NCBI GenBank assembly: GCA_032718475.1
Contig: JAUCBJ010009156.1
Span: forward strand, 25,493-89,492
Source of the DNA: Nemertoderma westbladi
Lineage: Eukaryota; Animalia; Xenacoelomorpha
Reading direction: 5' to 3'
DNA: 64,000 nucleotides
Below are positions 1 through 47,035 of this stretch, one piece after another. Position 1 is the first letter of the stretch, and the number at the start of each line of letters is the position of its first letter. The notes below the pieces were generated by a model that did no database searches, was not told the DNA's origin, and saw nothing but the letters and a program-made list of their open reading frames with translations. Made by a program: the position numbers and the translations under genes.

Positions 1-2
1 TA

Positions 3-3000
3 GCGGCGAAAGGGGGGGGGGCAGAGAGTGTCCCACAGCCGTCAGCGGATAATGCGCGGGCCGAAATAGGTAAACCGCAACAACCGGCGACGGAAAGTAA
101 TAGGGGGATTGCGAGTATCCCCAGCGGCGTGCGACCCAGCAGACCATACTGAGCCATAGGCCATACTGAGAGAGGCAATGTAGGCGATGGGATAGCGTGG
201 ACAACGGGATTAAACCCGGAAGTCGCGGAATACATACCGGCGGGTAGGCCAGAAGCTGATAGGCCTATACCGGTACCAGTACAGCAGTATGACTACAGCA
301 TGCAGGGACATAACATATACCCAGGGGAGGGGGGAATTATTGCGGATAGGTGCATGGGCCCCAACATATTAACATCAACCCCAGTACCAAACATACCGGT
401 GGGGGGGGGACAGGGTGACATTCCCCCATCACAATATCAACAATATAACCCGATAGGAGCAAGAACAACGAGACCCTTGGATGAGAATAGGTCGTGTGAC
501 ACAGAAATATGGAGGGGGCCGCTACCCCCGATGACATACCCAAGTCAGAGAAGATCGAGAAATAGGACGGACGAACCGCACCAGACAGGAGAAACTATAC
601 AGCACCCGTCGAATCCATTGGAAGCGCAGGCGATGGGGATGGCCATGTTGATCGATGCGTTGAAAACGAGGATCGAGCTACCACCCGTGGAACCATTCAA
701 ATTCGATGGGAGCAGGCCGGAAGAATATCTACAGTTTCGGCGCATGTATAGTAACGAAATACTAACAAAAAACTTGACGCAGGCGGAGTGCCTAAAGTAT
801 CTGCAAGTGTACACGGGAGGCCCAGCATACGATATCGTGAGGCAATATCAAGGAATAGAGGGCGGCTTCACGACAGCATGGCGGGCACTGGATAGGGAAT
901 ACGGGCACCCGGCCAAGATCATCAGGCAGACGCTGAGAGGCATAACATCGGGTGGCCTACAGGATAATCCCGTTAGCATTAAGACGTTCGCTCACAAAGT
1001 CGAAAAGGCGCTAATCGTGCTGAAGACGCTAGACGCGCCGTACGAGCTCAATGCGTCCAACAACATCACCACGATAGCGCAGGCACTACCAAACTGGCTG
1101 CGCAACAAGTGGAGGAAAATCGCCTTCTCCACTCGAGATAAGAAGGGCGCGGAACCGGGTTTAGAAGAAATGTCAAACTTCTTAAACTACGAGGCTGAAC
1201 TAATAACTGACCCAGTCTATAGTGAAGATAGCCTGGGAAAGGGACCGAAGACAGACTACCATAAACCGAAACCAGAGCACAACACATCAAACGCATTACC
1301 GAGACTTAGGCAATCACTGCCATATGCAGCGACGCAGGGGACTGCAAGTCCACAGCTAGCCGAGGATAAGACAACACCATGGAACAGACAGGGAAACAAT
1401 AACAACATGAATAAACATAACCCCAGTACGTCCAGTAGGCTAAATCCAAACAATAAGAATAGTAGGGACTTTGGTACAAACGCAACTGTGATACGCAATG
1501 CACTGTATAAAGAGGGCTACGACCCAAAGAGCAAATGCCAGCTACACGCAAATGCGCTTCATCAAACCATGAACTGCAGGTACTGGCAGGCGCTACCTAG
1601 GCAAGATCAGATAGATTATGCGTTCAGCAATAAAATCTGCTCACGATGTGTAATGAGTGGACATAGAGCAAGGGAGTGCAAGGAGAAGCCAATAAAATTT
1701 GGTCAAAGGAGAGGCCAAACGATGGCGACGAGCACAGTAGGGGCGAAGAAGAGGGGAACGGTGTTACTTGGAGTAGTACCAGTGCGAGTGATCGGGGAAG
1801 GCAATCGATCAGTAACAACACTAATGCTGGTTGATAGTGGAGCTGCCTTCACATTAGTCGAGGAATGGGTGGCCGAGGAGATAGGATTGAGAACGAGGCC
1901 AAGCAGGATGGCGGTAACAACCATCTCTAGCAAAGATTAGATCCTGGAGATGAGAACAGGACGGTGCGCAATTGCAGCAGTGGCACCAGGATGCGACTAT
2001 GGGGCAACCATCGACCCCATCCAAGTGATAGAGTCAATTAATATTAATGCCAGGCGACCAACCAACATCGAGGTCGAGCAGTATAAATTCCTGGACGACA
2101 TTGACTTCTCAATCCCAGACGTGGACGTTAGGAAGGTGTCCATCATAGTAGGCATGGACTGCCCAACGGCCCATGAAAGAATGCAAACGGTCTTCGGCGA
2201 AGACAAGCAGAGTGACCCGGTGGCCATATTAACACCATTCGGGTGGACGCTGAGTGGTCCAATTAAGAGCAAGATACCATTTAGGATGTCGGAGACATCA
2301 GGATGCATGTTCGCGGGAACAATGCAGGAAATGGGTGACGAGGGAGCAGAGGAGCAGCTTAAAAGACTGCTCAGACAGGATTTCGAGGGACTGAAAGAAA
2401 CCGGAGTCGGGACCTCAGTAGAAGACAAGCAGGCTTTACAAAGCGTGGAGGAATCGATGACATGCGATGAGGGGCGGTATACTATAGGAATGGTATGGAA
2501 ACTACCGAAGATACCGCTGCCCGACAATAGGGGGATGGTACTCACGAGACTCCGCAAGCTGAAACAAACACTAAAACGGAGCCCCGAGAAGAATGAGTAC
2601 ATCCACAGAACGATTAAGAAGTACGTCGAGAAAGGATGGGCCGTGGAGTTACCGGTCGACGAGCCGAACACGGACAGGACATATTACCTGCCACTACACG
2701 TGGCTTTAGATCCAAAAAAAGGTAAACTACGGATGGTAGTCGACGCATCGGCAAAGACCGACGGAAAGTGCTTAAACGACTACCTGTTAGAAGGCCCAAA
2801 CATATACAATTCGGGCATAGAGGTGTGACTTAGATTTAGAAATGGGAAACACGCCTTCACGTGTGACATAGAAGGCATGTTCAACCAAGTCCGTGTAACG
2901 GAAGAAGATAGCGACAGTCAACACTTCTTATGGTATAACGGCGAGGAAGAACCGTCGATAATACCGGCATATAAGATGGTAGTACAAAACATGGGGGCCA

Positions 3001-5741
3001 AGTCGTCTTCATTTACGACGACTATGGCAGTGAGAGACACAGTGAAGGGGAAGGAAGATAGATACAGCAGTAGGGCCGTCGATATGATTCGACGCGGCTT
3101 CTACGTAGACGACGGAATGGAGTCTGGAAATACGGTTAAGGAGATACTGGACACAGGGCGCGAGGTTCGCGACATCCTAAAAGGATCCGGCTTTAACCTG
3201 ACCAAATTCCAATCCAGTTCGGAAGAATTTATTAAGGCGATAGAGGACAGGAGACCAGAATCGACCATGGACAATCCCACAACAGCCAAAGGGCAGGACA
3301 TGGCGATTAAGAGAACAGAATCTCAACAGAAGGCATTGGGAATCGTGTGGGATAGAGAGACAGATGAACTGAAGTATCAGCTGAGCCAGGAGGGCGCAGA
3401 CATCCATACGAAGAGGGGCTATGTATCGTATATAGCAAGGATATACGATCCCCTAGGCCTAGCATCCCCATTATTAGTCACGGGAAAACAGATACTCAAG
3501 AGAGTATACAAATTGAAAGATGAGTGAGACGTAGAGGTACCAGAGGAAATCAAGAAACAGTGGAGCAAGTGGACAGGAGACTTGGAAAAGATGGGAACAT
3601 ACAACATTCCACGGGTGTATTTCCCGGATGGGAACATGACGAATCTGGACCTACACATGTTCTCCGACGCGTCGTTGGAAGCGTACGGAGCGGCACTCTA
3701 CTTAGTACAACGAGCGGGGGCTCATAAGCCAAGACTAGCCTTTAGCAAAGCAAAGTCAACGCCACCAGATTCAGCATCAGTTCCTAAGTTAGAATTGACA
3801 GCCGCAAGACTAGGAGTAAGAGCCACAGCCTACCTAGTGGATACTATTCCCAACATAGTAGAGACACACTACTGGACGGACTCCATGGTAGTGCTTGGTT
3901 GGCTACACAACGAAAGAACGAGATACCCGATATTCGTCGCGAATAGAGTGGACGAAATAAGGGCGAGTACAGAACTGGAAAGGTGGCACTACTGCCCAAC
4001 AGACGATAACCCAGCGGACTTGTTGTCGAGGGGCGTGGTACGCCACACTTTCTTGAAGAAGGAAGTATTGTGGCAACATGGGCCACAATTTCTGAGCGAT
4101 AAGGAAGCCTGGCCGCCGATGAGGAAGGTGGACCCGGGCTCGGAAGTAGTATCAGAAGGAGAAGAGGGAGATTCAGAGGGAGAAGAGATATACTCCCAGA
4201 TGGTGAGGGAGATTAGGGACGTGCAACCAGGATGGGAACTGTGCGATAACCCGACGGATAAACTCCTCAGCTACAGTTCTAGTTGGTATAAGACCAAGAA
4301 ACTAGTGGCGTACTGGAGAGCCTTCGGGAATTTCCTTGCGGGAGTTGGCAAGGACAAGAAGATCAGGACAACCATAGATCTGGAAGGAGCGGCCAAGGCA
4401 GTGATCCGCTATGAACAACGGAAGAACTATGGCGACGAGGTGGAATGCGTCGGTAACCAACAGCTCCTCCGACGGGACAGTGAGCTGATTACGCTGTCGC
4501 CACAACTCAATGACGACGGGATTCTAGTAATGAATTCTAGGGTGGGATACAACAACAGCATAGTCGTACCACCGAAACCCATCATCATTCCTACAGAATC
4601 GCCAATAGTCCACCAGATTATATGGGACTCCCACAAATCGATATTGCATGGGGGCACCAACCGAACCCTCACAGAAATAAGGAGGACCTATTGGGTCAAA
4701 CAATTAAGGAAGAAGGTAAAAGCGGTAGTGGGGCAGTGCCAGACCTGCCGACGAGCGAAGAAGGAGCGAGCCATACAGGAGATGGCGCCACTACCGGCGA
4801 GTAGGGTAAGACAGCACGACCCGCCATTTACGCATTGCGGTGTGGACATGTTCAGGCCGATAAAGATCAAAGTGATGCGACACACGGAGAAACGCTACGG
4901 CATTATCTTCGTATGCAACAATACACGGGCGGTAGGGATAGAACTCGCCCAAGATGCAACCGCATCAGCGTTCATTAACGCCTTAGAAAGGTTTAGGGAC
5001 CGCAAAGGTGGGACGATCGCAGTGATATACAGCAACAACGGCACCAACTTTGTGGGCGCAGAGAGTGAGATGGCAGAGGCCTTGGACATCTTGGAGGGGG
5101 AAGAAGTCAGGGCAGCCATGAGGCGACGACAAGTAAAGTGGGAGAGAAGGACGCCGTATGCACCACATACACTAGGGTGCGTCGAGAGACTGGTGGGCAG
5201 TTCAAAGCGTCTAATGACGAAGCTAATGAACACCCACATGGTCACAGAGGACGTCTTACGGACAGTACTTGCGAAGTGCGAGGGGATTATTAATAGCAGA
5301 CCGCTATATCCGGAGAATGATGACCCTGAGTCATTAGACGTGCTGACGCCTAGCCATTTTCTGATGGAAAGGCCAGCGACCATCGATATGCGGGGTGTAG
5401 ACCCAGATGACATACACTCCCGCCAAAGTTGGAAAGTCGCTAAAGCAATAAGCGCAGAGTATTGGAGGAGGTGGGTCGAGGAATACCTACCCACACTCCA
5501 TAAACGAAGCAAGTGGAGGAAGTCAAACAGGGAGTTAAGAGAGGGAGATCTCGTAATCGTTACGGATGATACTATCATCAACAACCAATGGCGGTTGGCG
5601 AGAGTTGTAGGCACCTACTCCGATGAGGACGGAAGAGTCCGATCGGTAGAAGTGCGGATAGGTGGAAAGATAGGTGTGAAGGACAGAAAAACCTACAGGA
5701 GAGCTGTAGGCAAATGCTGTCTGTTAGAAGGCGCACCTTAG
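3..5741 (+). pseudogene. BEL/Pao gag-pol polyprotein, disrupted by in-frame stops
   Basis: ORFs 300, 1950, 2877 and 3582 share one frame, broken by TGA 150-152, TAG 1938-1940, TGA 2826-2828 and TGA 3525-3527. Motifs seen: gag FDG..EY..F and CSRC..GH..EC knuckle, protease LVDSGA, RT LRFR..CDIEGMFNQV and FYVDD, YDPLG, RNase H FSDAS..AYGA / PKLEL / WTDS / NPAD, integrase H..H..CQTC, GVDMF, YSNNGTNF, VERL, and a C-terminal W..W..EYLP domain. Confidence 0.92.
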
Positions 5742-5867
5742 TAGAGTTAGAGAAAAGTTTAGTCGTCCAAGTTTTGGACTGAGGGGGGTGGGATTGAGGG
5801 CGAGACGCCCTTCCCACGCAAAAAAATAAAATAAAATAAAATAATAGTACATGGTAGGTACGCAGTT

Positions 5868-6765
5868 AGTAGGCAGGAGTTAGTTAAGAGGTACGTAGTA
5901 CCTAGTTAGTCAGTTAGTTAGAAGGTACGTAGTACCGCCAGTTAGAGAGTTAGAAGGTACGTAGTACCGCTAGTTAGTTAGAGTTAGAGGGTACGTAGTA
6001 CCGCTAGTTAGTTAGAGAGTTAGAAGGTACGTAGTACCGATAGTTAATTAGAGAGTTAGAAGGTACGTAGTACCGATAGTTAGTTAGAGAGTTAGAGGGT
6101 ACGTAGTACCGCTAGTTAGTTAGAGTTAGAGGGTACGTAGCACCGCTAGTTAGTTAGAGAGTTAGAGGGTACTTAGTACCGCTAGTTAGTTAGAGTTAGA
6201 GGGTACGTAGTACCGCTAGTTAGTTAGAGAGTTAGAGGGTACGTAGTACCGCTAGTTAGTTAGAGTTAGAGGGTACGTAGTACCGCTAGTTAGTTAGAGA
6301 GTTAGAGGGTACGTAGTACCGCTAGTTAGTTAGAGTTAGAGGGTACGTAAGTACCGCTAGTTAGTTAGAGAGTTAGAAGGTACGTAGTACCACTAGTTAG
6401 TTAGAGAGTTAGAGGGTAGGTAGTACCGCTAGTTAGTTAGAGTTAGAGGGTACGTAAGTACCGCTAGTTAGTTAGAGAGTTAGAAGGTACGTAGTACCGC
6501 TAGTTAGTTAGAGTTAGAGGGTACGTAGTACCGCTAGTTAGTTAGAGAGTTAGAAGGTACGTAGTACCGATAGTTAGTTAGAGAGTTAGAAGGTACGTAG
6601 TACCGATAGTTAGTTAGAGAGTTAGAGGGTACGTAAGTACCGCTAGTTAGTTAGAGAGTTAGAGGGTACGTAAGTACGCTAGTTAGTTAGAGAGTTAGAG
6701 GGTACGTAAGTACCGTTAGTTAGTTAGAATTAGAGTTAGAGGGTACGTAGTACCGTTAGTTAGAA
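5868..6765 (+). repeat. Minisatellite of ~30-33 bp units (GGTACGTAGTACCGCTAGTTAGTTAGAGAGTTAGA), ~27 copies, inside the retrotransposon
   Basis: Directly visible tandem array between the pol stop and the extra ORF. Confidence 0.95.
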
Positions 6766-7257
6766 GAGAGAGAGTAAGAGGTAAAAGGGGATATAGATAT
6801 AGATATTAGTTAGCAGTTAGTAGAGAGAGGGGGGCATATGAGTACAGCTGGGTAAATCGTGTGGCCACACGACGCATACTGCTGTACTGCATAGGCCAGA
6901 ATACAGAGTAGGCCAGAATGTGGATTAGAGAATAGAATAATCCATAGGCAATAGTAAGTAGTAGGACAGTAGAATCAAAGTTAAAATAGATAAATAAATA
7001 GAATAGGGCTGAAAGTTACAAAATAATGGCAACACAAGGAAAGTTATTCTAGAACATAATAAAAGTAACGGACAGAAATTGTAAATTACGCCCATTTACT
7101 AGCTTCAAAATTAATTAGTGATAATTTAGGTTAAAAAGGCGCAGTTAAGTAGGAAATAGGCCATTATCGAACCGTACAGAACATCTTAGATACATCACTC
7201 ATCTGTATTGCGCCTTGGTAAGGCACCACCTTGCAGGTGAGCGAGTGAACGTTCGGA

Positions 7258-9618
7258 ATGGCGAGTAAGTTGATCAGGAAGAGAAAGGCGAAGTCAGGAG
7301 GAAAGGAGATACTGGTGGATTTCACCGAGAGGCATCCGGAAGAGAAGACGAGAGGATACTACGAGAGGTTGGAAAGGGGTCACGCGGCGCGAGCGCTGCA
7401 GGATCACTTCAGGGAGATGCACGAACAGCGGCTGGTCGGGACCTACGGGACGCCGTCGCTGGACAACGCGATCTTCCAACACTTCCACTACGTAGTGAAA
7501 GGGGACGAGGCGAAGTTCGGGATTCCGAAGTACCCGAGGGAATCACCGAGGAAGGACTGGAAGAGATTCATAGAGTCCGTCAACAGAGGAGGATATATGA
7601 TCCTAGACGACGAGGGAACCGTGGAAGACGAGGCGGGTTCGAGACGAGGAACGGCGGGGTCGGCCAGGACCATACTCCTACATTTGGCCGCGCCAAATGG
7701 GGACATCTTCTTATTCGATCTAGGAACGTATGGGAAGAAGGACAGGCCGAAATTAAACCGGTTACCGAAAGCGGTACAAGTCTTAGTAAGAGAGAAGTCG
7801 ACGATGAAAGTGGGATCGGCGATTCGCGAGGACGCGGAGAGGATCATCGGTCCGGACGCCGCCAACCTCCTGGATATGCAGAAAGTCTTTATGGCTATGA
7901 CGGCACCGGATGGGTTGGGGGTAGTCGAAAACACAGGCCAATGCGGGGCGGTGGCGATGGGCCAATTATTGGGGCTCGTATGCCACAAACCGATGGACTG
8001 GGGGAAGTTTAGGGAAGAATACGGAGCAGAACTAGCGAACTCGCTAAAGTGGGGAGCGAGACCGGGAAAGCAGGAGGTATATCAGTTCCGCAGGGGAGCG
8101 ATAAAGGTATATCAGAAGCGATATATCCTGCAGGAGGACTGGATGATGATAAGTTTGCTTAACTTATTCATGACCGTGGTTATCGAGAGGGAACCAGGGG
8201 CATTTCTGTTATCGGGATCACCCCTAAGCTACCGGAGAGCCTTTAAGACGGCCTTTGACGGTCTGGTAGACCACCCGGGGCTGAAGGGCGAGTCGGTGTA
8301 CTACAACAGCCGGCATCTGGTAGACGGGGAGACAGATACACCGTATCAGAGATGGGAGCAGCTAGAGACGGATAGACGAGAAGCAAAGCGACTGGAGGAA
8401 GTCGCTAGACGGGAGAGGATAGAAGCAGAGGAGAGGGAAGAGGAGGCCAGGACACAGAGTTACGGCTTCGAGGAACAGGCAGGCCTAGACGAACTTCATT
8501 GGACTTCATCAGGGAGTTCGGGGGAGTCTCTAGGGCGAGAATTGGGATGGACGGTGGGATCGCCGAAACAGTCGACGTCGGGGTTGCAAACGATGCCCAT
8601 ACCAGCGGGCGCCGAGGGCGACCAACCGCCAAGGAAGTTAAGGGAGCTAGAGGGATGGAGAGCTACGGGCGAGAGCCAAGGCGGGAAGGGACATAGTGGA
8701 TCCATCGGGATACCGGGGTTGGAGACACTGCCAGAAGAGGAGGACGACGACGACGAGTTCGGAGAGATGCCGCCCATCGAGAGGATAGGCCACTCGGACA
8801 CGGACTGGGTTGGCGGAAGGGTGGTGACGGCCAGTGGGGCGAGGGCCTTCTGGAACAGATCCGGCAAGCGGACCTGGGTGCACGAGGAGCCGGCGATGGA
8901 TTTCGCGGGGAGCACCATCAGGTTGGGCGAGCAACCGGGGACGGCACCACGGGTAGTATTCGGGGAGACGATGCCCGAGAGGGGCGGAGAGATCGACGTA
9001 GATAGAGAGACCAACGTAGAGAAGTTCGCCTACCAGCGACTCCACAGACCGCGGAGATCGCTTGGGACGAAAGACGAGGTGGGACGGGAGACATTGGTAC
9101 TCGGCTGCGACTACTGTGGGAGACAGACCCATCGGGAAAGGAGCTGCCTATACCGGTTCCAAAAGGGAACCTTTTGTCTCTACTGCCGAGAACCAAGCCA
9201 CAGGATGGGGGCGTGTCCACGGTTGCATAATCGATGTACAAAGTGCCACTTTCGGGGACACTACGGACGCGAGTGCGACTGGATGAACGACGAGGAGAAG
9301 TTCACAAGATTCGAGGAGTGGGCCGACGTCGGGGCCATGACGCGCCAGCGCATGAAGGCCCAGGAGTTCAAGTGGGGTTTCTTCCTTATCAATCAGGAGA
9401 CTCACATGGAGATCATAAAGCGGAGGCTACCGTTTACCTACCAAGAGGTAGCAACGGCGGCGTCGTACGCCGGAGTGATGAACACGCAAAGGTATTTGGA
9501 CAGGTGGACGCCAGAGAACCGAAGGGAGTTTAGGGATTTCTTGGCGGAGCACGTACCACAAGGCAATGAAAATGATCCTATGGGACGCCACCAGAGGGAG
9601 ACAACCGGGCCACTCTGA
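7258..9618 (+). CDS. Retrotransposon accessory ORF (786 aa): DEDDy-like 3'-5' exonuclease domain, acidic/low-complexity linker, three CCHC zinc knuckles
   Basis: ExoI-like ILDDEG, ExoII-like KVGSAIRED, LLDMQ, ExoIII-like QKRYILQED. CDYCGRQTHRERSC, CLYCREPSHRMGAC and CTKCHFRGHYGREC all fit CX2CX4HX4C. Same strand and purine-rich composition as gag-pol. Confidence 0.75.
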   Translation: MASKLIRKRKAKSGGKEILVDFTERHPEEKTRGYYERLERGHAARALQDHFREMHEQRLVGTYGTPSLDNAIFQHFHYVVKGDEAKFGIPKYPRESPRKDWKRFIESVNRGGYMILDDEGTVEDEAGSRRGTAGSARTILLHLAAPNGDIFLFDLGTYGKKDRPKLNRLPKAVQVLVREKSTMKVGSAIREDAERIIGPDAANLLDMQKVFMAMTAPDGLGVVENTGQCGAVAMGQLLGLVCHKPMDWGKFREEYGAELANSLKWGARPGKQEVYQFRRGAIKVYQKRYILQEDWMMISLLNLFMTVVIEREPGAFLLSGSPLSYRRAFKTAFDGLVDHPGLKGESVYYNSRHLVDGETDTPYQRWEQLETDRREAKRLEEVARRERIEAEEREEEARTQSYGFEEQAGLDELHWTSSGSSGESLGRELGWTVGSPKQSTSGLQTMPIPAGAEGDQPPRKLRELEGWRATGESQGGKGHSGSIGIPGLETLPEEEDDDDEFGEMPPIERIGHSDTDWVGGRVVTASGARAFWNRSGKRTWVHEEPAMDFAGSTIRLGEQPGTAPRVVFGETMPERGGEIDVDRETNVEKFAYQRLHRPRRSLGTKDEVGRETLVLGCDYCGRQTHRERSCLYRFQKGTFCLYCREPSHRMGACPRLHNRCTKCHFRGHYGRECDWMNDEEKFTRFEEWADVGAMTRQRMKAQEFKWGFFLINQETHMEIIKRRLPFTYQEVATAASYAGVMNTQRYLDRWTPENRREFRDFLAEHVPQGNENDPMGRHQRETTGPL

Positions 9619-10517
9619 GGGGCCACCGGCGAAGCGATATCGGGCACTAATAACACCAGCGCCCAAGGAGCCAACGACCGGGATCAGCAAGGAGGTGGCG
9701 GCGAAGGTCCGAAAGCAGAAAGCGGATCCCAGAGGAACGGTGGTAACCAAGAAACGACCCAGGGAAGAGGACGCCAGGGGGAACTATCCCCAGAGGAACA
9801 GATAGGTTCCCAGAGCCGAGGGAGAGAGACTGAGACTTGGACGTGGTGCGCCTGGAAGGCGCCGCGTGGGACGTACGAACTATTAAGTACAAATTTAATT
9901 AATGCAAATAATCATATAAGTGCAATTTGTATGTACGTACGTAGTAATTAGTAATCTACGAATATATACGCTCGAGTAAGTACTATAGTCATACAACCTT
10001 TCTCAATTAGCTACTGGGACTGGGGGATAACTGACTATGGCACTATGGACGAGACACCAGACAATTTCACACTTCTTGAGTGCGACGGCACAAGAGGGGG
10101 GGGGGGAGATTCGTCAGAAGGGATGAGGTAGTCAGAGTAGGGTTGAGGGACAGAGTAGTAGGTGCGAAGTGCGGAGAGAGTGCGGACGCAATTCTAGTGT
10201 GGGGGGGGAGAATAAGAGGCTGAGTGAGGGACGAGGAGGTCCGAGTGTATGAGAGAGTTAGGATGAGAGTGAAGAAGAGATAGGGCGGAAGTGTTGGGGA
10301 AACAAAAGTTGCGTGAGAGGTGAGCGCGATCGGCCCGACATGAGACGCCAGGCACACAGGGTAGCGTTATCATACCCATAGGGAGCGGCCTGGAAAGCCG
10401 GCTCCGAGAGAAAAGAATTCCACCCCACACCCGATACTAGATCGGGATCCAGCGGGATTGTAGCGCACTTTTTTGGTTGATGCTATCTTCTTACCGGGAA
10501 GATAGCATGGGGGGGAG

Positions 10518-11028
10518 TGTTAGCTTATTCAATCCCGCTAACACCCCATAAAGTTATAAGCCGATAAGCAATATTGGGAGCCACGAGATTGGGTAATTAA
10601 CCAACTCGTGCCATCCCAATAAGAATGGGAAGGAGAAGCACACAATGAGGGTCAGGGGCCAAACCCCTAACCCAGAGAGAATAGGTGGAGTGAACGGGAA
10701 CACTCCAAAGGGCGCCAACAAGGGTATCAACCAATCAGAGGGGGGAAAGGCATCGATTAGGTAGAGTAACAAGGCCAACCGTGCAATATAGCCACTTGGC
10801 AGTAATCATACCAATTCAGTTATCTCAGTGCAATACCGGTGCTAGATTAGGTTACATAGTTTAGCTAGGGAAGGACCGGGACTTTAGTTACCGTATCCCG
10901 CCTTCCGTATACGACAATATTATCTCATATCTATATCTATATCTATATCTGCATATCCAAATATTATATACGACAAACAGCACAAACTCATTCACTCCTT
11001 ATACACGGCGGGGACGCGTGAACTAACA
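10518..11028 (+). repeat. Long terminal repeat (~511 bp)
   Basis: Starts TGTTAG directly after the PPT and ends CTAACA (6-bp inverted termini). The partner LTR is not in the window, so the right boundary is inferred. Confidence 0.7.
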
Positions 11029-11146
11029 ACGGATAAACCGGGATCCCTCTTGGATCCCGTCACAGTAACTAAATCGAGCTGCTGCCCTAGTTAAACTGTA
11101 ACAACTGCTGCCCTAGCTAGCTGAACTCCACCGATCACCAACCGAG

Positions 11147-12030
11147 ATGAGTCAGTCGGGAGAGATAACACCGACGCGGACCCCGGACGAAGAGCTAACG
11201 ATCCGCGAGGCCGCAACCAGGCGATATAGGCCCACGACGCCGGACCCATCGGTAACGGGTCATCCGGCAGTTCAGGACGAGGGGGGCCTGGAACCCGAGG
11301 TCGAGCCGAGAGGAAGAGAGAGCGAGACGGAGGGAGACGGAGACGAGTCGACACAAGGCGGGGGTCGACGCACCGGTGTCGCCGGCCAGCCACAGGCCGA
11401 GGGCGACGAACGGGCCACCGAAACGGCGACGGTGGGGCCGACGGTGCGGCCCCGGACGCAGAGAGACGAAGGAGATATCGGTACCGATGTCGCCGGCCAG
11501 CCACAGGCCGAGGGCGACGGACGGCCCGCCGGAACGGCGACGGTGGGGCCGCCGGTACGACGTCGGACCCGGAGAGACGGAAGAGAGATCGGCGACGAGG
11601 ACGTCGGGGTTTCTGATCGACTTCGACGGGCCTACAACGCGACCCAGAGACTACTAAAGGACGCTAAGAAGGAAGGGGCGAAGATAGACGAGGTGAGACT
11701 GAGGAAACGACTAGGTGAGTCGGATAGACACTTTAATTACCTAATGCGTTTTGGGCAGAGAGAACTAGCCGAGGAGAGAGCGAAAGGGATTGCCAGTGAA
11801 CTGTTCGAACTATGGGAATGTGGGAGTATGGAACCTAGCGTAGCGTCAGTGTACATAGGGCCATACTTGGTCGATGCCCGGGGAGTAAAATTAGTGGGTT
11901 GGAGGGGACCAGAAGGGGGCGAATCCGAGGTTAACCCCGAGGATTCGGCCTCATCGGTCGGAGAAAGTTCCGGGAAGCGGGGGAAAGTTAGTAGGTCGGG
12001 AAGGCGGAGGGAGTCCATCGAAACCCTAAT
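11147..12030 (+). pseudogene. Probable truncated gag N-terminus of a second element copy downstream of the LTR
   Basis: 304-aa ORF starting ~120 bp after the LTR with the same purine-rich composition, a PEDSASSV motif resembling BEL gag N-termini, and an internal ~111-bp duplication. It runs abruptly into AT-rich unrelated sequence at ~12025. Confidence 0.55.
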
Positions 12031-12289
12031 TCAAAGTGGAAATGGAGGCCCAAAACCTTAAGTAAAACTGTCATGTAACCCCAACCTTAAATATTTTGGA
12101 TCCTAAATTCCACAAAATTTCTTAGATTAGAGCATGGGACTTTAAGGTTATAGGGTTACTAATGACTGTTTTAATTAGGGTTTGGGCCTGACCAACTAAC
12201 CCAACCACAAAAATAAACGCCTAGGACACCGGCAGCGTTCTTAATGCAGCTGCTTCCAGCATGTCCATTATAGATAGATAATTGAAACC

Positions 12290-12560
12290 TGAAAAAGGTG
12301 GACAGTCCAATCACTAATAAATAGCATTGCTTTAATACGTTTCTGATTGGTCAGGCTATTATCTATGTTTTTTGTGCATGTGTCCAGTCCACCTTTCACC
12401 TTTTTCAAACACACATCTTATTCCCAATTATGTAACTAAGAAAGCGAAAACTTGAAAAAGGTGGACAGACCAATTGCTACAAACTGCTTTACATAATACG
12501 TTTCTGATTGGTCTGTCCGTTGTCCATGTTTTCTGTACATAGTCCACCTTTTTCAAACAC
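12290..12560. repeat. Two tandem copies of a small palindromic MITE-like unit (TGAAAAAGGTGGAC...GTCCACCTTTTTCA)
   Basis: Inverted termini visible in both copies (~12290-12410 and ~12453-12558). Confidence 0.55.
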
Positions 12561-12965
12561 CCCCTGTCAGCCTGTATACACCCTGTACACTCTGGACTAC
12601 AAACCCGCCAGCTGACAAGCAACAGAAGAACCTACTGCAGTAGTGCAGTACTGGCTACTGCTGTACTGCAACTGCACAACTCTGCAACTGTAGTAGTACT
12701 GTAGTACAGTAGTAGGCCTACTGACAGACTGAACTGCTGAACTATGCGATAATGAATAATTAATTTGGAGATAACAGAAAAACAGGATAAACTCGTAACT
12801 CTCTAATTTATGTTCCCAGTTCCAGTTGGCCGTACCGTGCCGGTACAGCGGTACTGTCTGACTGTTATGTAGCAGTCAGACAGCAAGACAATACCGATAC
12901 AAAATACCAGCTGAACAGTGCGGCTGGCTTCGATAGCCTAACACCTGAATTCCGCAAGTGGTAAG

Positions 12966-15900
12966 ATGGAGATTTTGTTGCGGATTCTATGTTTGTTACT
13001 GTTTAGTAATTGCCAATTTAATTGTCAGTCGAACAACAACGCCGTCGCCAATGATTCATCGAGTTTGTATTCGGTTGATATGGGAGGTTTATCTGGCGCT
13101 GGTTATTATGTCGGAGTATCGATTGGAACGCCACCGCAAAAGGTAGGTCAGTAGGTAGGCCTACCCAGGGCTGGCAAAGTAGGTTTTTGTAAACCTAGGT
13201 TTTTGTAGGTTTTTGTCAAAAACCTAAAATTTGAAAAAAGCCTAAAACTAGGTTTTTAGGTTTTTGATTTTTCATCTTTAATTTGCCTTTTAATTTCATT
13301 TGTACACTCAAAACAACTGAACAAGTATACTTGCATTGTCAGCTGATGAGTTCGTTCCAGTCCAGTCCAGTTGTCTTGTCACTACTGACAAGCTGACTGT
13401 TGCAAGGGTCCTACTAATTACCCCAACCTACCACAATCTACCCCAACCTACCACAATCTACCGCAATCTACCCCAACAATTCGATAGAGGCATTTAATTA
13501 CCACAATATTATTTTACATTGGTATCTAATTACCACAATATACAGAACTCAAGTGTCTATTTACCACAAGACTACACTGCATCTAATTACCACAATATTA
13601 TTTTTTATTTTACATTGGCATCTAATTACCACAATATATAGAACGCAAGTGTCAGAGTGTCTATTTACCACAAGACTACACTGCATCTAATTACCACAAT
13701 ATTATTTTACAATGGCATCTAATTACCACAATATACAGAACTCAAGTGTCTATTTACCACAAGACTACACTGCATCTAATTACCACAATATTATTTTACA
13801 TTGGCATCTAATTACCACAATATACAGAACTCAGTGTCTATTTACCACAAGACTACACTGCATCTAATTACCACAATATTATTTTACATTGGCATCTAAT
13901 TACCACAATATACAGAACTCAAGTGTCTATTTACCACAAGACTACACTGCATCTAATTACCACAATATTATTTTACATTGGCATCTAATTACCACAATAT
14001 ACAGAACTCAAGTGTCTATTTACCACAAGACTACACTGCATCTAATTACCACAATATTATTTTACATTGGCATCTAATTACCACATTATACAGAACTCAA
14101 AATAATGTAAAAATGTAAAATATAAAATGTAAAATAATATTGTGGTAATTAGATGCTGTGTAGTCTTGTGGTAAATAGACACTTGAGTTCTGTATATTGT
14201 GGTAATTAGATGCCAATGTAAAATAATATTGTGGTAATTAGATGCAGTGTAGTCTTGTGGTAAATAGACACTTGCGTTCTGTATATTGTGGTAATTAGAC
14301 ACCAATGTAAAATAATATTGTGGTAATTAGATGCAGTGTAGTCTTGTGGTAAATAGACACTTGCGTTCTGTATATTGTGGTAATTAGACGCCATTGTAAA
14401 ATAATATTGTGGTAATTAGATGCCTCTATCGAATTGTTGGGGTAGATTGCGGTAGATTGTGGTAGGTTGGGGTAGATTGTGGTAGGTTGGGGTAATTAGT
14501 AGGACCGACAAAAACCTAGCGAAAACCTTCAAAAACCTGCAAAAACCTTCCAAAAACCTACAAAAACCTTGCAAAAACCTAAAACCTAAAAATTTTTCTG
14601 AAAAACCTATGGTTTTTGCCAGCCCTGGGCCTACCTACAGACAGAGGTGCAGCCAATTGCAGAATTGGTGCAGGCGCAGCCGCAGGACTGCAGCCCTGCA
14701 GGGGTGGGCTCTGGGCTGAGGTGGGGTGGGTTGGCAGGTTGGGTTGATGTTCATGTCCGATTCCGAAATTCCACAAACATTGTCTCATCATTGACCAATA
14801 CGTGAATTGTAGTGGTAGATATGACGCGCTGACGCGACGTCTAAGAAGGTGAGTGAATGTTTACTTTGAACTTTATACTGTTATACCGGTAGACAACAAT
14901 AACTTAGATTGGCCTATTAACGCTACGGAAACTGAGTGAAGGAATAAAATCAAAGAGCCTTCCTGCAATGTAGACATTTATCAACTTCAAGAAAGCATTC
15001 GTCTGAGATTGACTCCATCCATAGCTGCATAGAATTTCCAGCAAAATGCTTGAAATTTTAAGAGCTTAGGCCCTATGAATTATCAGATGCAATCGTTGCT
15101 GACATTCGATTATTATATTGTGATACAGACAGAAGCTCAGGTACTTTCACCAGATGGTGAAACTAGGTTCTTCTCAATCCTGGCTGGTCTACTGCAACTG
15201 CTGCAAGGCGACACATTGGCTTCGTTACCATTTAGTGTTTATAATTGTAAAGGGTTATGAATGAACCATCAGTCTGCTTTTTAATACGAGTTCAGATGCA
15301 CAGCTTCTACTGAACAAAGTGGAAAGGGCTGCTAAGGAGGTTGGATTGCATAAAGAATACATGACTTTTAATGTTTCATGGAAACTATTTCACCAAACTT
15401 TATAATACAGTAATAATCCACTAAGTGAAGTTTATGACTTCCAGTACCTTGCTTTATAAATAAAAAAAGAAAACTTTAGTTAGGAAAGCAAAGGCATGGA
15501 AGCGAACGGTTATGAGACCAACTTGAAAGGGATACTGAACTTGGGAGAAAGGAAAGTGCAACTATGGAGAATCGGGAAGCCTGGAAGGATCTCATTTCCA
15601 CTGAACTAGATTGCTCGACGTAGTAGTATAGGCCCCCAGATTCCATGAAATTCTGTATAGGTCTATACATTGGATTGGTGCTTGAATTTATATGCAGTTT
15701 GGCAAACAGTGTAAAAATTTATGGTTATTAATTGATTATGTATCCGTTTTTTTTTAATTTAGAGAGATAGCCTGGTTTGTTTGTTTATCATACTGCTTAA
15801 AGCAGAAAATGTCAACACATTTTTTATGTTAAAAAAGTATCACTAACTTTAAAATCTTATGCACGTTATGCTGATATGTATATTGAAAGATTGAAATATT

Positions 15901-18900
15901 ATATTTGAAACTCAAATAATGCGATACGTGTTTCGGTTATTGGCGTAGATTAATGGGATATCAATACACTTATACATTACTCAATTAATTTACTCAATTA
16001 CTGTATTTACTTTCATGTACTTTAATTTTTCTATTTCTTCCCTCATCACAACTGTCTGTAATTATTCCAACTATACCGAGAAGGAATAGCGTTATTGCAC
16101 ACAATCCGCAAATTATGAACAAAGCCGGAATATGGAGGGATGGAGCTGATTGAGTTTTACTTCGTGGGGGTTCATATTTATTTTCACTCCGAATAATAGA
16201 TACGTTAAACTTAATTGTTGTGTGTCTCTCTCCATCGACGTTCACGATTCGGTCTCCTTTAATTGTTGCTGAGTACACTCCTTCAACCGTAAACTTTCTT
16301 TCCAATACTCTATTATTGCTCCCATAATTAATTAGTTCACCATCGGGCGCGTACCATAAGAATTGCACCGGACTGGCAGTCATCACGTCATCCAGACTGT
16401 TTCCATGGAAACCCCACTTGATGATGACTTTTGATGTAGTGCTTGCGAATACCTGATTCGATTTACTATCAAGTGATCGTGTTTGAATACCGCGGGCATC
16501 CTGAATTAGTTTCAGTTCTAACTCAGTTACAAGCAGATTTGTTTTTACTACCGGTACTTTAAAATATTGCGTCTCCATCTCACAAACATATTGACCTTTC
16601 ACTTCTTTCCTTGTATCTAAGTTAAATACAGATTCGTTACTAACAGATTTCCTTGCGTCATTGATGTAATACCATTTAACTTTTGGTTCCGGATTTGCTC
16701 TATCGTAATTACATTGTAAAGTGAAAACTCCTGTGATGTTAGATTTCTTAGTTTCATTGCTGTATTGATATGTAACATTATGTGTCATCAGAATAAATAT
16801 GGCGGAGATGAGGTTTCCCTTTGTGTCAGTTATGTTGATGTTGTTTGGGGGAAAGACAGCGGTAACGGTTACAGAGCAGTGTGGAGTTGGTAGAAGAGGT
16901 GGGAGAGCAACATGCTTGGCGACACAAGTAAAGGTTAAATTCCTTCGCAAGGTGATTGAGTCGATGTTATGGGAAGTGTTTGGGATACTGAAATACAATT
17001 GGGAAGCTTTTCCTTCTGGTGTTTTTACATCATGTTTTCTGATTGTAGAGAATTCTATTTGGTCTGTGTTTCCGGTGAATGCATCTTCTATATCGTTTTT
17101 ATTTAATTTTGGCAGGATTTTATCCGAATTGTATAAAAAGCAATTCACCGGCCTCCAAGTATCCCTCATGTACGGAACGATACAGGTTGTAACGTTATCC
17201 GCAGCACTTTCTCCGATGTAACTTATAGGACAAATACACCTAAGTTGCCAGGATTGAGGCACGTAATTGAGACAGTCCACACCATTGCTACTATGCTTCA
17301 TTGTTTGGATCGTGCATGGGTCTAGTGTTCTCATTAGTCTTTTTGAAGTCCGCTGAGAATGATTAAAGTAATTTACATAAGATATATCACTAGTGAGGTT
17401 TTTGAATACACACTTATTATCAGAATGGTAGTATGCTTTAACAATAGATTTCCTTTTTTCAGCAACCTTAGACGGGGCGTTGTACACTATTTCTGCCAGT
17501 TCCCGCGTCACTTCATTGATAAACTCATCAAACGATATAACCCCCCCATTTATGTCTTTATAACCCCTGTTAATTTCTAGAATATTACTTCTCTGCGTTA
17601 ACGATGCCTCATCTGGTATAATTTTCCTATGGGACAGCTTGCTGTTGCAAGGGGAAGAACTTTTACCTTCATTACCACCCTGGTCATGAAACTGCCGAGT
17701 TATCCAGTTCAGTTTATCGTCGTACCTGAACAATATCTTCATGCAGAATGTTTCGTTAGTTCCGAATACTGCCAAAGTATAGGAGTCGTTGTTTAGTGCG
17801 TCGTCCAGGCAACTATCATGAACTAAATAGCGAGCCCCTATAGCGAAGCCGAAGGCAGATGTTTCGTATTTAAAATTAGAGTAGTTGGTTGATAACATGA
17901 TGTTGTTTATGTTGTTGATGTAGCTGTCGATCTCATCTCGAACACTCCACCGATTGGATTCATCACCACATTCGGAAAGTCCCTCATCGATAATAAAGTG
18001 GTCAAGAAAGGATTTATCTGCACCCACATGCATTACACATGTCGTTATGTCGTAAGGGTATGTTTTGAACTTTGCTGAGGTGTGATATTGCCTAGTGAGT
18101 CCAGATGGTTGACCTTTGTGTGTGATTTTATCTGTAACGTTTGGACACTTGAATATTATAGGTGATGTTCCATCAGTTCCATCCAAACTAAAATACCAAT
18201 CCATTCCTGATAACTTTTCCTCGCAACCATTTTGGATTTTTTCCCCATTTGGTTTCCGTAGACCAGAAATTAATATTATGCTTACTAGCAACTCGTAAAT
18301 CATTGTATATATATAATTTAGTGTAGGTTTCTGGTTTATATTATAATAATCAATGACTGGAACAATTGTAATCGATATACACCATGTCCCATAATATAGT
18401 GTCGTAATTCAGTGACACCCCCCCCCCCCCCCCCTCCCCCTAATTTTTCTACAAATCTTAATGAGATTGCATGAAATTTGAAACAGAGATAGTTTCACCT
18501 CCCGACCACTGACTGGGTGAGCCAGAATTTTTATTTTTAGAATCTTTAGCTACAAGCGTTTAAAAAAGTGTCTCCAGCGATATTACACCAGTTACACCGC
18601 AGTTATTCTTCTACCTTATAGCTGTTTGTTGGTACCAATGAAAAGCTGGCCATGCAAGGATTCCAAATATGTAACACAATTTGAATTTCGTTGAAAAATA
18701 GCTGAGATATGGGCGTTCAAATGTTGCATGGTTTTGCAACGACGCGAGGCTATTTTATTCTATTTAATAAATAAACCATGTTCTGGAACATTTTTTAAAT
18801 GTAGGAATAGCTACTTAATAGTATGATTAAAGATGTAATGCATTGTTGCCCAGCTACGTTTTGGATAAACAAAATATTCCAGATTGTGATGTATTTATTA

Positions 18901-21900: not shown

Positions 21901-24900
21901 TTTTTCTTCATATAGCCGCTTTCTGAAACTCAATCACTTGTAGGAATTAGATAAAGTTAAATCGGGGTGTATTAAACGGGATCTAGGATTGCACATTTCA
22001 GCCTCCTCAACCCTGGCTTATAAACTGGTCGGAGGGGTTCTAGAAGAGCTCATCAGAAGAACGCCTCATCTTATCAAACCTAATGTCCGGGACGCTTTTG
22101 CAGCCTACCGACAAGAGCGGGAATTAAACTTCGACAGGGCAGGGTATTTCAACGGACCAGACTTCATAACGAGCACTTGGAAAAAACCGTGTCAGAAGAA
22201 CCGGCACATATTGACACGCACGACCTCACACGGATTCCACCACAAAATATGCACACACTCACGTCCTTTTCACGAGATATCGGTATCGCTCACAACAGTG
22301 TTCCTACATTTATCACGTCTTGGATTGTCATGAATGCCCCTCGCTATCGGATCTTGCCCGCTCTTAAATTACTTTATTACTGTATTATCAATATTACTAA
22401 CTTATTTATTTACTTAATAATTTTAAATTCTAATTAAGTTCTACTGTATGACCGGATTTCACCATTTACCCCGCGTATATTAAATAATCATCAAAATTCA
22501 AAAATAAAAGACAAAAATGTGTTCCAAAAACTAGCTTGTATAGAAATTATTCTAGAACAAATAATATTTGTTCTAGAACATACATTTTTATTTAATCTAT
22601 AACTGACATGTTCTAGAACATTTAAAACTACAAAAAGCGAAAACACTAGCTAGTATAAAAAAGAAGTACAGTTAAAAATCCAAAAATGTAGCCACGGGCG
22701 GAACTGACCCTGAAATATTTTCTTTAGGGGGGCGGGCAGGTACCTGAATAACGACACGATATTCCAGGACATGTTGTATAAAATAAGAGTTCCGTATAGC
22801 ATTACATTTATAAAACGTATGTCATTGTTACCTTGGCAACTCCTCTCCACCAGTTCCGTACTCCTCCCCACTAATTCCGTACTCTTCCCCACTAGTTCCG
22901 TACTCTTCCCCACTAGTTCCGTACTCCTACCCACTAGTTCCGTACTCCTCCCCACTAGTTCCGTACTCCTCCCCACTAGTTCCGTACTCTTCCCCAATAG
23001 TTCCGTACTCCTCCCCACTAGTTCCGTACTCTTCCCCACTAGTTCCGTACTCCTACCCACTAGTTCCGTACTCCTCCCCACTAGTTCCGTACTCCTCCCC
23101 ACTAGTTCCGTACTCTTCCCCAATAGTTCCGTACTCCTCCCCACTAGTTCCGTACTCTTCCCCACTAGTTCCGTACTCTTCCCCACTAGTTCCGTACTCT
23201 TCCCCACTAGTTCCGTACTCCTACCCACTAGTTCCGTACTCCTCCCCACTAGTTCCGTACTCCTCCCCACTAGTTCCGTACTCTTCCCCAATAGTTCCGT
23301 ACTCCTCCCCACTAATTCCGTACTCTTCCCCACTAGTTCCGTACTCTTCCCCACTAGTTCCGTACTCCTACCCACTAGTTCCGTACTCCTCCCCACTAGT
23401 TCCGTACTCCTCCCCACTAGTTCCGTACTCTTCCCCACTAGTTCCGTACTCCTCCCCACTAGTTCCGTACTCTTACCCACTAGTTCCGTACTCCTCCCCA
23501 CTAGTTCCGTACTCCTCCCCACTAGTTCCGTACTCTTCCCCAATAGTTCCGTACTCCTCCCCACTAGTTCCGTACTCTTCCCCACTAGTTCCGTACTCTT
23601 CCCCACTAGTTCCGTAGTCTTCCCCACTAGTTCCGTACTCCTCCCCACTAGTTCCGTACTCCTCCCCACTAGTTCCGTACTCCTCCCCACTAGTTCCGTA
23701 CTCTTCCCCACTAGTTCCGTACTCCTCCCCACTAGTTCCGTACTCTTCCCCACTAGTTCCGTACTCCTCCCCACTAGTTCCGTGCTCCTCCCCACTAGTT
23801 CCGTACTCTTCCCCAATAGTTCCGTACTCCTCCCCACTAGTTCCGTACTCTTCCCCAATAGTTCCGTACTCCTCCCCACTAGTTCCGTAGTCTTCCCCAC
23901 TAGTTCCGTACTCCTCCCCACTAGTTCCGTACTCCTCCCCACTAGTTCCGTACTCCTCCCCACTAGTTCCGTACTCTTCCCCACTAGTTCCGTACTCCTC
24001 CCCACTAGTTCCGTACTCTTCCCCACTAGTTCCGTACTCCTCCCCACTAGTTCCGTGCTCCTCCCCACTAGTTCCGTACTCTTCCCCAATAGTTCCGTAC
24101 TCCTCCCCACTAGTTCCGTACTCCTCCCCACTAGTTCCGTACTCCTCCCCACTAGTTCCGTACTCCTCCCCACTAGTTCCGTACTCCTCTCCACTAGTTC
24201 CGTACTCCTCCCCACTAGTTCCGTGCTCCTCCCCACTAGTTCCGTACTCCTCCCCACTAGTTCCGTACTCTTCCCCAATAGTTCCGTACTCCTCCCCACT
24301 AGTTCCGTACTCTTCCCCAATAGTTCCGTACTCCTCCCCACTAGTTCCATACTCTTCCCCACTAGTTCCGTAATCCTCCCCACTAGTTCCGTACTCCTCC
24401 CCACTAGTTCCTTACCCCTTTAATGAGTTTATTACTTTTGTTAGAAACTCTTTAAAAAGAATACTACCATTAACAATGTTTTATTGTTTTTTTTAGATCA
24501 ACGTGTTGGTGGACACAGGCAGTAGCAACCTCGCAGTAGCTTGTACATCCTTTCCTATAATACAAGGTAGACATTACGATAGAAAACTTAGTTCTACTGA
24601 CGTGGATGAGAACGTCTCTGTGGATATTGGTTACACTGAGGGCAACTTGTAAGTAATTTTATAGCGAGGGAAATAACAAAACGAGGGCCGTAAAAGCTTT
24701 CTTATTTATTTACTTATAAACTATAAAATACTATAAACTATAACTATAAAATGTTGTTTTATTTAAAATATTCACTTTGAATTAGAAGTTTAACGTCACA
24801 AAGTTATCGCAGATTTGAGGTCAATTCTGAAATTTTGTGTAATTAAATAATATTGACCGCTATAATAGATATACATTGTAATTGAAGATGCAATTTCTAG

Positions 24901-43436: not shown

Positions 43437-43555
43437 GTTTACTTTAGATGGCAGTTATATACTGTACTGCAATCAAGGCGTACTATATATAGTACGCCTT
43501 GACTGCAATTGCACACATTGGATATATTCAACCAGTAATTCAATTATAATAATAA

Positions 43556-45118
43556 CTGGGTCGGTGCGGGTTGACAGACACGTCGCTGGGTCGGTGTGAG
43601 TAGACAGAACCGTCGCTGGGTCGGTGTGGGTAGACAGACCCGTCGCTGGGTCGGTGTGGGTAGACAGACCCGTCGCTGGGTCCGTGTAGGTAGACAGACC
43701 CTTCGCTGTGGCTGTAACTCTCACCGCTGCGGCGTCTCCTCCACCGTTGCGGCCCCCCGATTGGCGCCGCTGTGCCGCTATAAAACTTCCCTCTTCGGGT
43801 CTACCAACTCTTATTGGTGATAACGTTATTGTGTTTTGGTTTAGCGTTGCAACAGGTCGGGCGGTTCTACTCAATATGTACTTGGGGTCCAGAGTGAGCC
43901 CCGATCTGACTCCAGCGCCCATGGTAATCTGCCCAACAGCGCCCGTGGCAGTGTGCACAGCAGCGCCCATGGCAGTCTGCCCAGCAGCGCCCATGGCAGT
44001 CTGCCCTGCAGCGCCCATGGCAGTCTGCCCAGCAGCGCCCGTGGCTCCCCCAGCTCGTTCCAACGACACATGAGTCTGGAACGGTGTCTTAGCGAACCGC
44101 AACCTGGCCGAGCACAATGATGGCGACTTGGCGTGGATATCGCCGAGGATTTCGCCTATAATCGCGAGCGGGTCGCATCGCGGGAGCGGCAACGGGCGGC
44201 ACTTCCGAACGCAGACCGACGGGTAGGTAAACAGTTTCCCTGGCAACGGGAGGAACGAGACGTTGAAATAAAACAATCCCTGGTCAGACTCGGGGAGTCT
44301 ATACCCATAGAGATTCTTCCAATACTTTCTGAGTTCCTTGTACGTTGTTAACGGACCCTGTTGGTTCACTGAGTGGGAGATACTGCTAACCAATCCTTTC
44401 TTACCTGTAGGGAAGACCACGCACCAGGGATTGCCTATAGCAGACTCCTGGATATCAGAGGAGGATGTGCTGGATAGGAACTCCTCAATGTCGGTCGAAT
44501 TTATGCCGAAATCTTGGAGGTTTATTTGTGGGATGTTGACGTTGTTTGGAATTACTTGGAGGCAGATCTCCCCATCTCTTAGATTCAGGCGAATTCTAAG
44601 TGATTCGTGTTTTCCTGGGACAGAGAGAAAGTCTCTGCCTTTAACGTAATAGTCTGAGACGCGGTTCCACTGCGGGGCTAGACGAGACAGTATGGTGTAA
44701 GACAGGCAGGCTTCCACCACGTGCTTACTAACAGGTAACTCTTTGGATACTCCGCTCAAACCAATCTTACTCAAATAGTTGAGCGGTTTATCTCTCTCGT
44801 CGTTTCTAACAGCCACGTAGAAACGGCGGTCGCTGGACCAGCACGGCGAGCAAATTGTACTCGGTACCATGAAGAGCAGCTCCCGGCATCTGATGGTTCG
44901 TTGCGTGCAGAGCGGTCGGTCTGCGGTTGAACAGCTTTCCGGTAGATCCACGGCGTATGACGCGAGGTCGTCGTGTGTAAACGTAGCAAATAGCAATGCC
45001 GTGCAAGTATTTGCCATTATCTACTGGTTACGGTACCCGTACCGGTAGGCCTAGCTTACTTCATTTATTAGTGGATAATGAAAGTAACTTAGTTAGAATA
45101 GTGAAAACTGCAGTAATG
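43556..45118 (-). other. Apparently identical partial duplicate of the C18orf63 locus (36713-38275), ending at the scaffold gap
   Basis: Constant offset of 6843 bp and identical translated ORFs. It begins inside the 30-bp coding repeat and ends at the Ns. Confidence 0.9.
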
Positions 45119-46253: not shown

Positions 46254-47035
46254 AGTGATTCCTCGTCTGCAGTGCAGCTAACAGGCTAGTGTAGTCTGGC
46301 AGTAGTGTAGGCAGGTAGGCCCTATAGCCAGACTGCCAGACACTGAGACAGCTTCAATAAATAAGACATCAGGACATTGCAGTACCGGTACCGGTAGTAC
46401 ATAGTAGGTATCTTATTTCCTTAACTGCTTAATACTGTAATAGGGCCTATACTCAATTCAATAGGATATACGGATATACTAATACTGCCAATTGAGGGAA
46501 ATGAGTACCCTGGCTGCCTGGAGTACGTTTTTAACTGCAAATTATACACCATGTCCTGGAATATTGTCTAGACATTACAGCATTACTGCATTATACTACA
46601 ACTGCTGTATTGTACTACTGTATATACTATAACTCAGTAACTGTAAAATCAGATAATGTAGGCTATGCACGGCACGTACAGATTCTGGACAGTCGACAGA
46701 TATACCGATAGACCTATCAACTAGGCAGCTAGGCCTATACTGGTATACAAATCTGCAAATACAAGTATACAGGTAACGCTATGCTACTTTGTTTTGACAA
46801 TGTTGACAAATATTAGTAGGCCTATTAAATTAAAATATAAATATCTGAATATCTAAATAAATCTGAATATCTAAGGCATACGGTACTACGGTGTACAGTC
46901 AAGGAAGGCCTACCCTACAGCCCTACAGTCTGACAGTCTAACTCAGTGCAATTCGATATTGGGAATTTCAATGAGCTGATAGATAATTGATTTAGTTATA
47001 CTTTTTCGATATTGTAGACCCCAACTTACTTCACC

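Follow-up and report, generated by a model that had tools for sequence, protein, structure and literature searches.

Here, we describe an intact third gene in an abundant family of BEL/Pao long terminal repeat (LTR) retrotransposons, found in 64,000 nucleotides of Nemertoderma westbladi DNA (contig JAUCBJ010009156.1, positions 25,493 to 89,492 of the forward strand; hereafter the window). The gene, an open reading frame (ORF) that we call ORF3, occupies the env position, between pol and a polypurine tract (PPT) that adjoins a candidate LTR, and it is under purifying selection among copies. In amino acids (aa) ~90–320 of its product, remote similarity points to a very likely DEDDy exonuclease domain of the WRN/EXD2/RNase D type, and three zinc knuckles follow towards the C-terminus. 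The reading that we favour, with a probability of roughly 0.5, is that ORF3 encodes a knuckle-tethered 3'-5' exoribonuclease, kept by purifying selection as the third gene of this abundant family; the catalytic activity, substrate and expression of the protein are the parts that we infer only weakly.

Results

ORF3 opens with an ATG at 7258 and runs to 9618 on the forward strand without a stop, encoding 786 aa; ORFs overlapping it in other frames were rejected as shadows. The first-pass annotation of the window had reported this uninterrupted 786-codon frame together with five motifs, a basic N-terminus, three canonical knuckles and no transmembrane (TM) anchor, and had judged the product not to be env-like, all of which held up. 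The N-terminus is basic, and the motifs lie at aa 4 (KLIRKRKAK), 115 (ILDDEG), 184 (KVGSAIRED), 204 (LLDMQ) and 286 (QKRYILQED). The three knuckles of the form CX2CX4HX4C span aa 617–630, 640–653 and 660–673, and not one of 10,000 shuffled versions of the protein contained even a single such motif. A 19-residue hydropathy scan found no TM anchor, given that its maximum, located at the ExoIII helix, is just 1.3; without a TM segment the protein is not env-like, and it does not show the signal peptide plus TM anchor of a fusion glycoprotein. The features of the gene are as follows.

7226..7236, forward: candidate splice acceptor CCACCTTGCAG, 21 nt ahead of the ORF3 ATG (seen in the sequence)
7258..9618, forward: ORF3, an intact frame of 786 aa that shows purifying selection across copies (ORF and variant analysis)
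7525..8214, forward: predicted DEDDy-type 3'-5' exonuclease domain, aa 90–319 (remote homology, alignment and guided model)
7606–7614, forward: predicted ExoI, D117/E119 (alignment)
7831–7833, forward: predicted ExoII, D192 (alignment)
8122–8139, forward: predicted ExoIII, Y289 with E293/D294 (alignment)
8215..9105, forward: charged helix-like stretch, then an acidic linker rich in G, S, P, E and D, aa 320–616, likely disordered for the most part (composition)
9106..9276, forward: three CX2CX4HX4C zinc knuckles (motif match)

The exonuclease domain was recognized by remote methods, since Pfam and NCBIfam gave no exonuclease match. In the ESM Atlas the first matches scored 0.94–0.95, and 24 of 30 matches fell in the PF01612 (DNA_pol_A_exo1) set. 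A WRN/EXD2-like profile and a mixed profile scored 6.1 and 6.7 bits, above all 1,000 shuffles in each case, and HHalign returned 54.6% with an E value of 1.2e-4, a score reached by 0 of 100 shuffles; the DEDDy-type domain and DnaQ-like fold proposed in the first pass are supported by these comparisons. In a MAFFT alignment of 55 sequences, D117, E119, K184, D192, K244, W265, Q286 and Y289 stand on invariant columns, and HHalign agrees on the register of D117, E119 and D192. The ExoI DxE and the ExoII D are in place in a fold that reads as DnaQ-like. At ExoIII, MAFFT has Y289 as invariant and puts E293 in the column of the D, with D294 next to it, so that the last catalytic acid would be E293 (with D294 adjacent), or would be absent in the other alignment. 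In the MAFFT alignment, the W265 motif is flanked by two insertions of 12 residues each, and identity to the reference rows is 13–22% over the domain. An alignment-guided model reached a predicted template modelling score of 0.76, although the model and its fold searches are partly circular and allow no subfamily to be named.

Variation among copies indicates that selection keeps ORF3. The variants considered are 40 listed of 921 in the ORF3 region and 40 listed of 415 in pol. Among the listed variants within ORF3, 27 of 34 are synonymous where 9.3 were expected (p 4e-10, with omega at roughly 0.1), compared with 11/34 and 1/34 in the shifted-frame control; by region, the synonymous fraction is 4/5 in the N-terminus, 16/19 in the exonuclease domain and 7/10 in the knuckle region. 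No listed variant falls in the linker, a catalytic codon or a zinc-ligand codon. For pol, 28 of the 40 listed variants are synonymous. Of 148 indels, 12 were listed, and all of these lie outside ORF3.

The surrounding element has the following parts.

153..5741, forward: BEL/Pao gag-pol in one frame (gag DUF1759, knuckle, protease, reverse transcriptase (RT) with YVDD, RNase H, integrase, DUF5641), starting upstream of the window (Pfam domains and motifs)
5781..5793, forward: G-rich purine tract right behind pol, with nothing LTR-like after it (sequence)
5882..6770, no strand: 36-bp tandem array between pol and ORF3, 25 copies, 90% matches (repeat search)
10509..10517, forward: PPT GGGGGGGAG, adjoining the candidate LTR (sequence)
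10518..11028, forward: candidate LTR of 511 bp with 6-bp inverted ends TGTTAG...CTAACA (sequence; one copy)
11147..12061, forward: 304-codon ORF behind the LTR, probably where the gag of a second, tandem unit begins; this unit breaks off near 12025 (ORF and depth break)

The gag-pol matches DUF1759 (1e-10), Peptidase_A17 (4e-24), Integrase_H2C2 (8e-13) and DUF5641 (3e-24) in Pfam. It combines a protease–RT–RNase H–integrase pol with Pao-specific domains and carries YVDD, LVDSGA and DAS; YVDD, DSG and DAS are among the motifs listed for the BEL/Pao family in PMC554778. In-frame stops break gag-pol at 150–152, 1938–1940, 2826–2828 and 3525–3527. Hence, the window copy of the element is dead, and ORF3 is its only intact gene. 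The gag part of this decayed copy has one canonical knuckle (aa 496–511) preceded by a CHHC variant, and no third Cys-His box was seen; Tas is likewise without a triple box in the account of PMC554778.

Behind pol, the purine tract at 5781–5793 is possibly a relic or an internal PPT. A hairpin (GTCCAA-GTT-TTGGAC) followed by this G tract occupies 5764–5793, and summed contig depth peaks there at ~400,000 (position 5783, run X1, described below), so the hairpin and G tract may be common to other families. The 36-bp array is strongly G-skewed and is possibly an enhancer-like or recombination-prone region; an AT-rich spacer separates it from the ORF3 ATG. After ORF3 come ~900 bp of non-coding DNA and then GGGGGGGAG, the sole purine run of at least 9 with TG next to it in 5742–11200. 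The PPT and LTR had also been proposed in the first pass: a 9-nt purine tract and a 511-bp LTR-like unit do lie 3' of ORF3, but they are recognized from one side only, in one copy. No second LTR was found in the window, which begins within gag, so that the 5' LTR lies outside it and the identity of the 3' unit is provisional. BEL/Pao LTRs are given as 0.2–1.2 kb, with a PPT of ~10 nt preceding the 3' LTR, in the ICTV profile (PMC8742986), and the tract and unit seen here fit these sizes.

Other copies show an indel and loose ends at 11029–11030, at the edge of the candidate LTR. The bases after 11028, at the primer-binding position, do not start with TGG, and the window contains no tRNA genes; a short hairpin (GGGATCC-N4-GGATCCC, 11036–11055) lies behind the LTR at the expected primer-binding site. 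The 304-codon ORF, which probably opens the gag of a second, tandem unit with the LTR common to both, has a PEDSxS motif, which we take to be a mark of BEL gag starts; it has no Pfam match and does not overlap the gag part present in the window. Contig depth drops ~tenfold after 12021, and at 12025 11 contigs of run X3 continue with one other sequence (agreement 0.93). This ORF also contains a 111-bp duplication (11372–11592). Rfam returned nothing credible in positions 1–14000.

To relate ORF3 to the family, contigs of four runs, out of seven listed, were aligned to 6790–13300 and 3600–5870: X1, X3 and X5, from one organism and three studies, and X6, from another organism and presumably an RNA run; the window itself may derive from the X1 sample. 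Taken as a coarse measure rather than a copy number, the median summed depth of ORF3 and pol is 50,395 and 73,199 in X1 and 46,535 and 48,993 in X3, against 24 and 13, respectively, in the flank bin 12894–13111. The repetition of ORF3 is therefore of the same order as that of pol. X6 contributed a few short pieces at depth 2–7 and no evidence of expression. Synonymous codon usage of ORF3 correlates with that of pol (r 0.74) and gag (0.63); for three host ORFs the coefficient ranges from −0.10 to 0.29. No shared 11-mers flank ORF3, and no LTR-like or repeated ends were found around it. From this we strongly infer that ORF3 belongs to the element; the earlier proposal of element cargo in the env slot is borne out by its position, pol-like depth, codon usage closest to pol and purifying selection.

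Homologue searches were negative throughout. Neither the whole protein nor aa 575–770 found a homologue in searches among proteins of 432–1376 aa; the exonuclease domain had no match at E ≤ 0.001 among 1.84 billion representatives; and no ORF3 homologue appeared in metagenome, viral or prokaryotic contigs, phages or PDB sequences. The rotifer Juno, Vesta and Athena DEDDy ORFs, discussed below, came up in none of these searches. With pol as bait, we recovered a single contig, whose 1459 bp would not be long enough to reveal a third gene, and viral contigs gave no match. For the knuckle region, an ESM search returned no more than leads scoring below 0.9. The top PDB sequence match of ORF3 was TbRND, the RNase D of Trypanosoma brucei, which is not significant and covers the knuckles only (phmmer E 0.64).

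Other features of the window

13407–14506: foldback structure built of an 89-bp unit in inverted arrays, with flanking 10-bp repeats, like a miniature inverted-repeat transposable element or a foldback element
15994–18408, reverse: intronless ORF of 804 codons that has Ig-like motifs and ends in a hydrophobic C-terminal segment, resembling a surface receptor by eye
22650–24423: 21-bp tandem array whose coding frame is open
26318–32000: 44-bp satellite, more than 100 copies
35676–38177 and 43473–45020, reverse: near-identical intronless ORFs, 833 and 515 codons long, both containing a THTDPATGLS repeat, a local duplication or an assembly artefact
47018–50539, reverse: intronless ORF, eIF3a-like by eye, with DRDYPPR repeats
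52149–53609, reverse: non-LTR reverse transcriptase fragment, 486 codons, CR1/L2-like by eye
58596–59065: tandem array of a palindromic 20-bp unit

Discussion

By analogy with TbRND, the knuckles of the ORF3 protein would grip single-stranded RNA, and a two-metal site made of D117, E119 and D192, with E293 standing in for the last Asp and with Y289, would nibble at the RNA 3' end. The long acidic linker of 300 residues may let the exonuclease and the knuckles act more loosely. Expression would be from an own or a spliced subgenomic RNA, as for env genes. The most likely benefit to the element would be interference with host 3'-end control, which could take the form of degrading or mis-trimming PIWI-interacting RNAs (piRNAs) and small interfering RNAs (siRNAs) or of stripping destabilising tails from element RNA, with about even odds between the two routes. 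The bolder proposal, that the element encodes an active, knuckle-guided small-RNA exonuclease which destroys or mis-trims piRNAs or siRNAs and, as an enzymatic suppressor of RNA silencing, contributed to the family's very high copy number, we consider unlikely.

Several observations weigh against the exoribonuclease reading. The profile scores amount to just a few bits, and little or no support came from two of the five profiles (219/1000 and 35/1000 shuffles scored as high), the no-support set being that of short RNase D-type proteins. The invariant-column test was modest (9/15, equalled by 1 of 60 shuffles), an unguided single-sequence fold reached a predicted local distance difference test value of only 31.9, and Pfam, NCBIfam and PDB sequence searches contained no exonuclease match, with sub-domains giving weak knuckle matches only. 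HHalign places ExoIII at Y275-QFRR, which offers no acid, rather than at Y289/E293. The ~300-aa linker, compared with 28 aa in TbRND, makes tight coupling of exonuclease and knuckles less certain. As to the family, 8 of 15 listed joints (of 69) begin inside ORF3, at low depths of 16–580, showing that some copies carry internal deletions of ORF3 and that decayed copies exist; and no record linked pol to ORF3 across the 36-bp array in another copy, reads not having been aligned over the array.

The alternative that survives best, doubtful but a serious candidate, retains the cargo gene and its fold and supposes a pseudo-nuclease of the EXD1 or Maelstrom kind that binds without cutting and, together with its knuckles, would protect the 3' ends of RNA or tie up small RNAs or host partners. 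The E in the ExoIII column, the HHalign register and the two insertions beside W265 would suit such a protein, and inactive DEDD derivatives take part in piRNA biogenesis according to a passage of PMC5408684. However, D117, E119, D192 and Y289 are kept on invariant columns, E293/D294 can supply the acid, and the rotifer ORF3s described in the same paper also swap one D for E (DEED); keeping three exact acids would be less expected of a dead enzyme.

That ORF3 is instead an active exonuclease on DNA in the particle, proofreading RT errors or trimming ends of complementary DNA with the knuckles as a second nucleocapsid-like tether, is quite improbable. The sole solved exonuclease plus CCHC case, TbRND, is an RNA trimmer, ORF3 is a separate gene outside the packaged polyprotein, and the copies are diverse, many contigs being only 90–95% alike, which gives no hint of high fidelity (a weak point).

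Less probable again is an origin of ORF3 and the LTR in a different, nested or adjacent element, with the BEL element ending at the purine tract of 5781–5793. The tract does come directly after the pol stop, the tandem array lies between, and the 5' LTR, being outside the window, offers no comparison. Yet the sequence behind the tract is no more like the LTR than chance (score 18, shuffle mean 18.6), none of 18 listed loose ends behind pol (of 437) leads into the LTR, the flanks of ORF3 share no 11-mers, its depth and codon usage match those of pol, and the ORF after the LTR resembles a BEL gag start. It is hardly credible that the N-terminal domain is not of DnaQ fold, its motifs being chance in a knuckle-bearing accessory protein of another kind: the missing curated family match, the missing homologue among the 1.84 billion representatives and the failed single-sequence fold fit that idea, but language-model features, profile and HHalign scores against shuffles, and the order and spacing of ExoI, ExoII and ExoIII agree independently.

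Should the protein do no more than bind, or should it process RNA of the element itself, the gene would be a useful but more ordinary accessory. The selection on the gene and its RNA-binding module together give a concrete prediction, 3' trimming assisted by the knuckles, and make this family well suited to the question of whether animal retrotransposons counter small-RNA defence by enzymatic means.

Neither half of this protein is new; what we did not find in print is the two combined as cargo of a BEL/Pao element. Our literature search, which covered neither subscription papers, supplements and figures nor Repbase and GyDB, found no paper on a BEL/Pao ORF3 joining a DEDDy domain to knuckles, and the accessible parts of PMC9094657, PMC2774666 and PMC13524379 do not mention exonuclease cargo.

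Compared with the Belpaoviridae that carry env-like third genes, the element shares the YVDD gag-pol, the Pao-specific domains, a PPT before the LTR and a third gene 3' of pol, as given in passages of PMC8742986, PMC9094657 and PMC554778. There the third gene is of fusogen type, whereas here it is a nuclease–knuckle protein, and the element would surpass the 4.2–10 kb size range stated for Belpaoviridae in PMC8742986. With the PF01612 group (WRN, EXD2, Nibbler/Mut-7, EXD1, RNase D) ORF3 has in common ExoI DxE, ExoII KxGxxxxxD and ExoIII QxxY in order; it differs in lying below Pfam detection, in the YxxxE of ExoIII and in its insertions, and its subfamily cannot be named.

Juno and Vesta, of bdelloid rotifers, are gypsy-type elements; among nematodes, Cer elements reportedly carry an RNase D-like domain, which our literature search did not confirm and which, if right, would give the BEL/Pao setting itself a precedent. 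A DnaQ-like domain is called a well-known accessory domain of LTR elements in PMC6338049, and DEDDy ORF3s are described in Juno, Vesta and the Athena/Terminon elements (PMC5408684, PMC6431247), so the rotifer precedent named in the first pass was right. In the passages of PMC5408684 on these genes, the rotifer ORF3 is, like ours, a stand-alone RNase D-like DEDDy ORF in the env slot downstream of pol, with no TM segment and with undemonstrated function. The acid changed here is the last one, compared with the one D-to-E change of the rotifer DEED. The knuckle passages concern gag and pol, with only the Cys-His-Cys of Vesta2/5 mentioned for ORF3, and no departure from neutrality is reported, whereas selection is clear here. 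The rotifer elements are described as belonging to other lineages at low copy number; the present family is a deeply repeated BEL/Pao.

For the fusion itself, which the first pass did not recognize, TbRND provides the same layout. This mitochondrial guide RNA trimmer has one DEDD domain and four CCHC knuckles, and its structure has been solved with RNA (PMC7797062; PDB 7C42 series); in the account given there, the knuckles bind RNA 5–9 nucleotides from the 3' end, and all of them contribute to trimming and raise activity. ORF3 likewise has an exonuclease followed by tandem CCHC knuckles, three rather than four. The linker is ~300 aa, compared with the 28 aa described for TbRND, the residues after the last Cys are L, P and D, where TbRND has an aromatic residue or His, and a further ~110 aa extend the C-terminus of what is a mobile-element gene, whereas TbRND is a host gene. 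With neither the short linker, the aromatic after the last Cys nor detectable orthology, ORF3 likely works like TbRND, by analogy, but is not a member of the TbRND-type RNases D, and the likeness is probably convergent given that there is no significant sequence similarity. Retroelement DEDDy cargo has been known since 2017, with its activity undemonstrated, and the rotifer copies are few and gave no clear sign of selection. In the present family, which is deeply repeated, a DEDDy gene is held under selection as strong as that on pol and is joined to an RNA-binding module whose role is structurally understood in TbRND.
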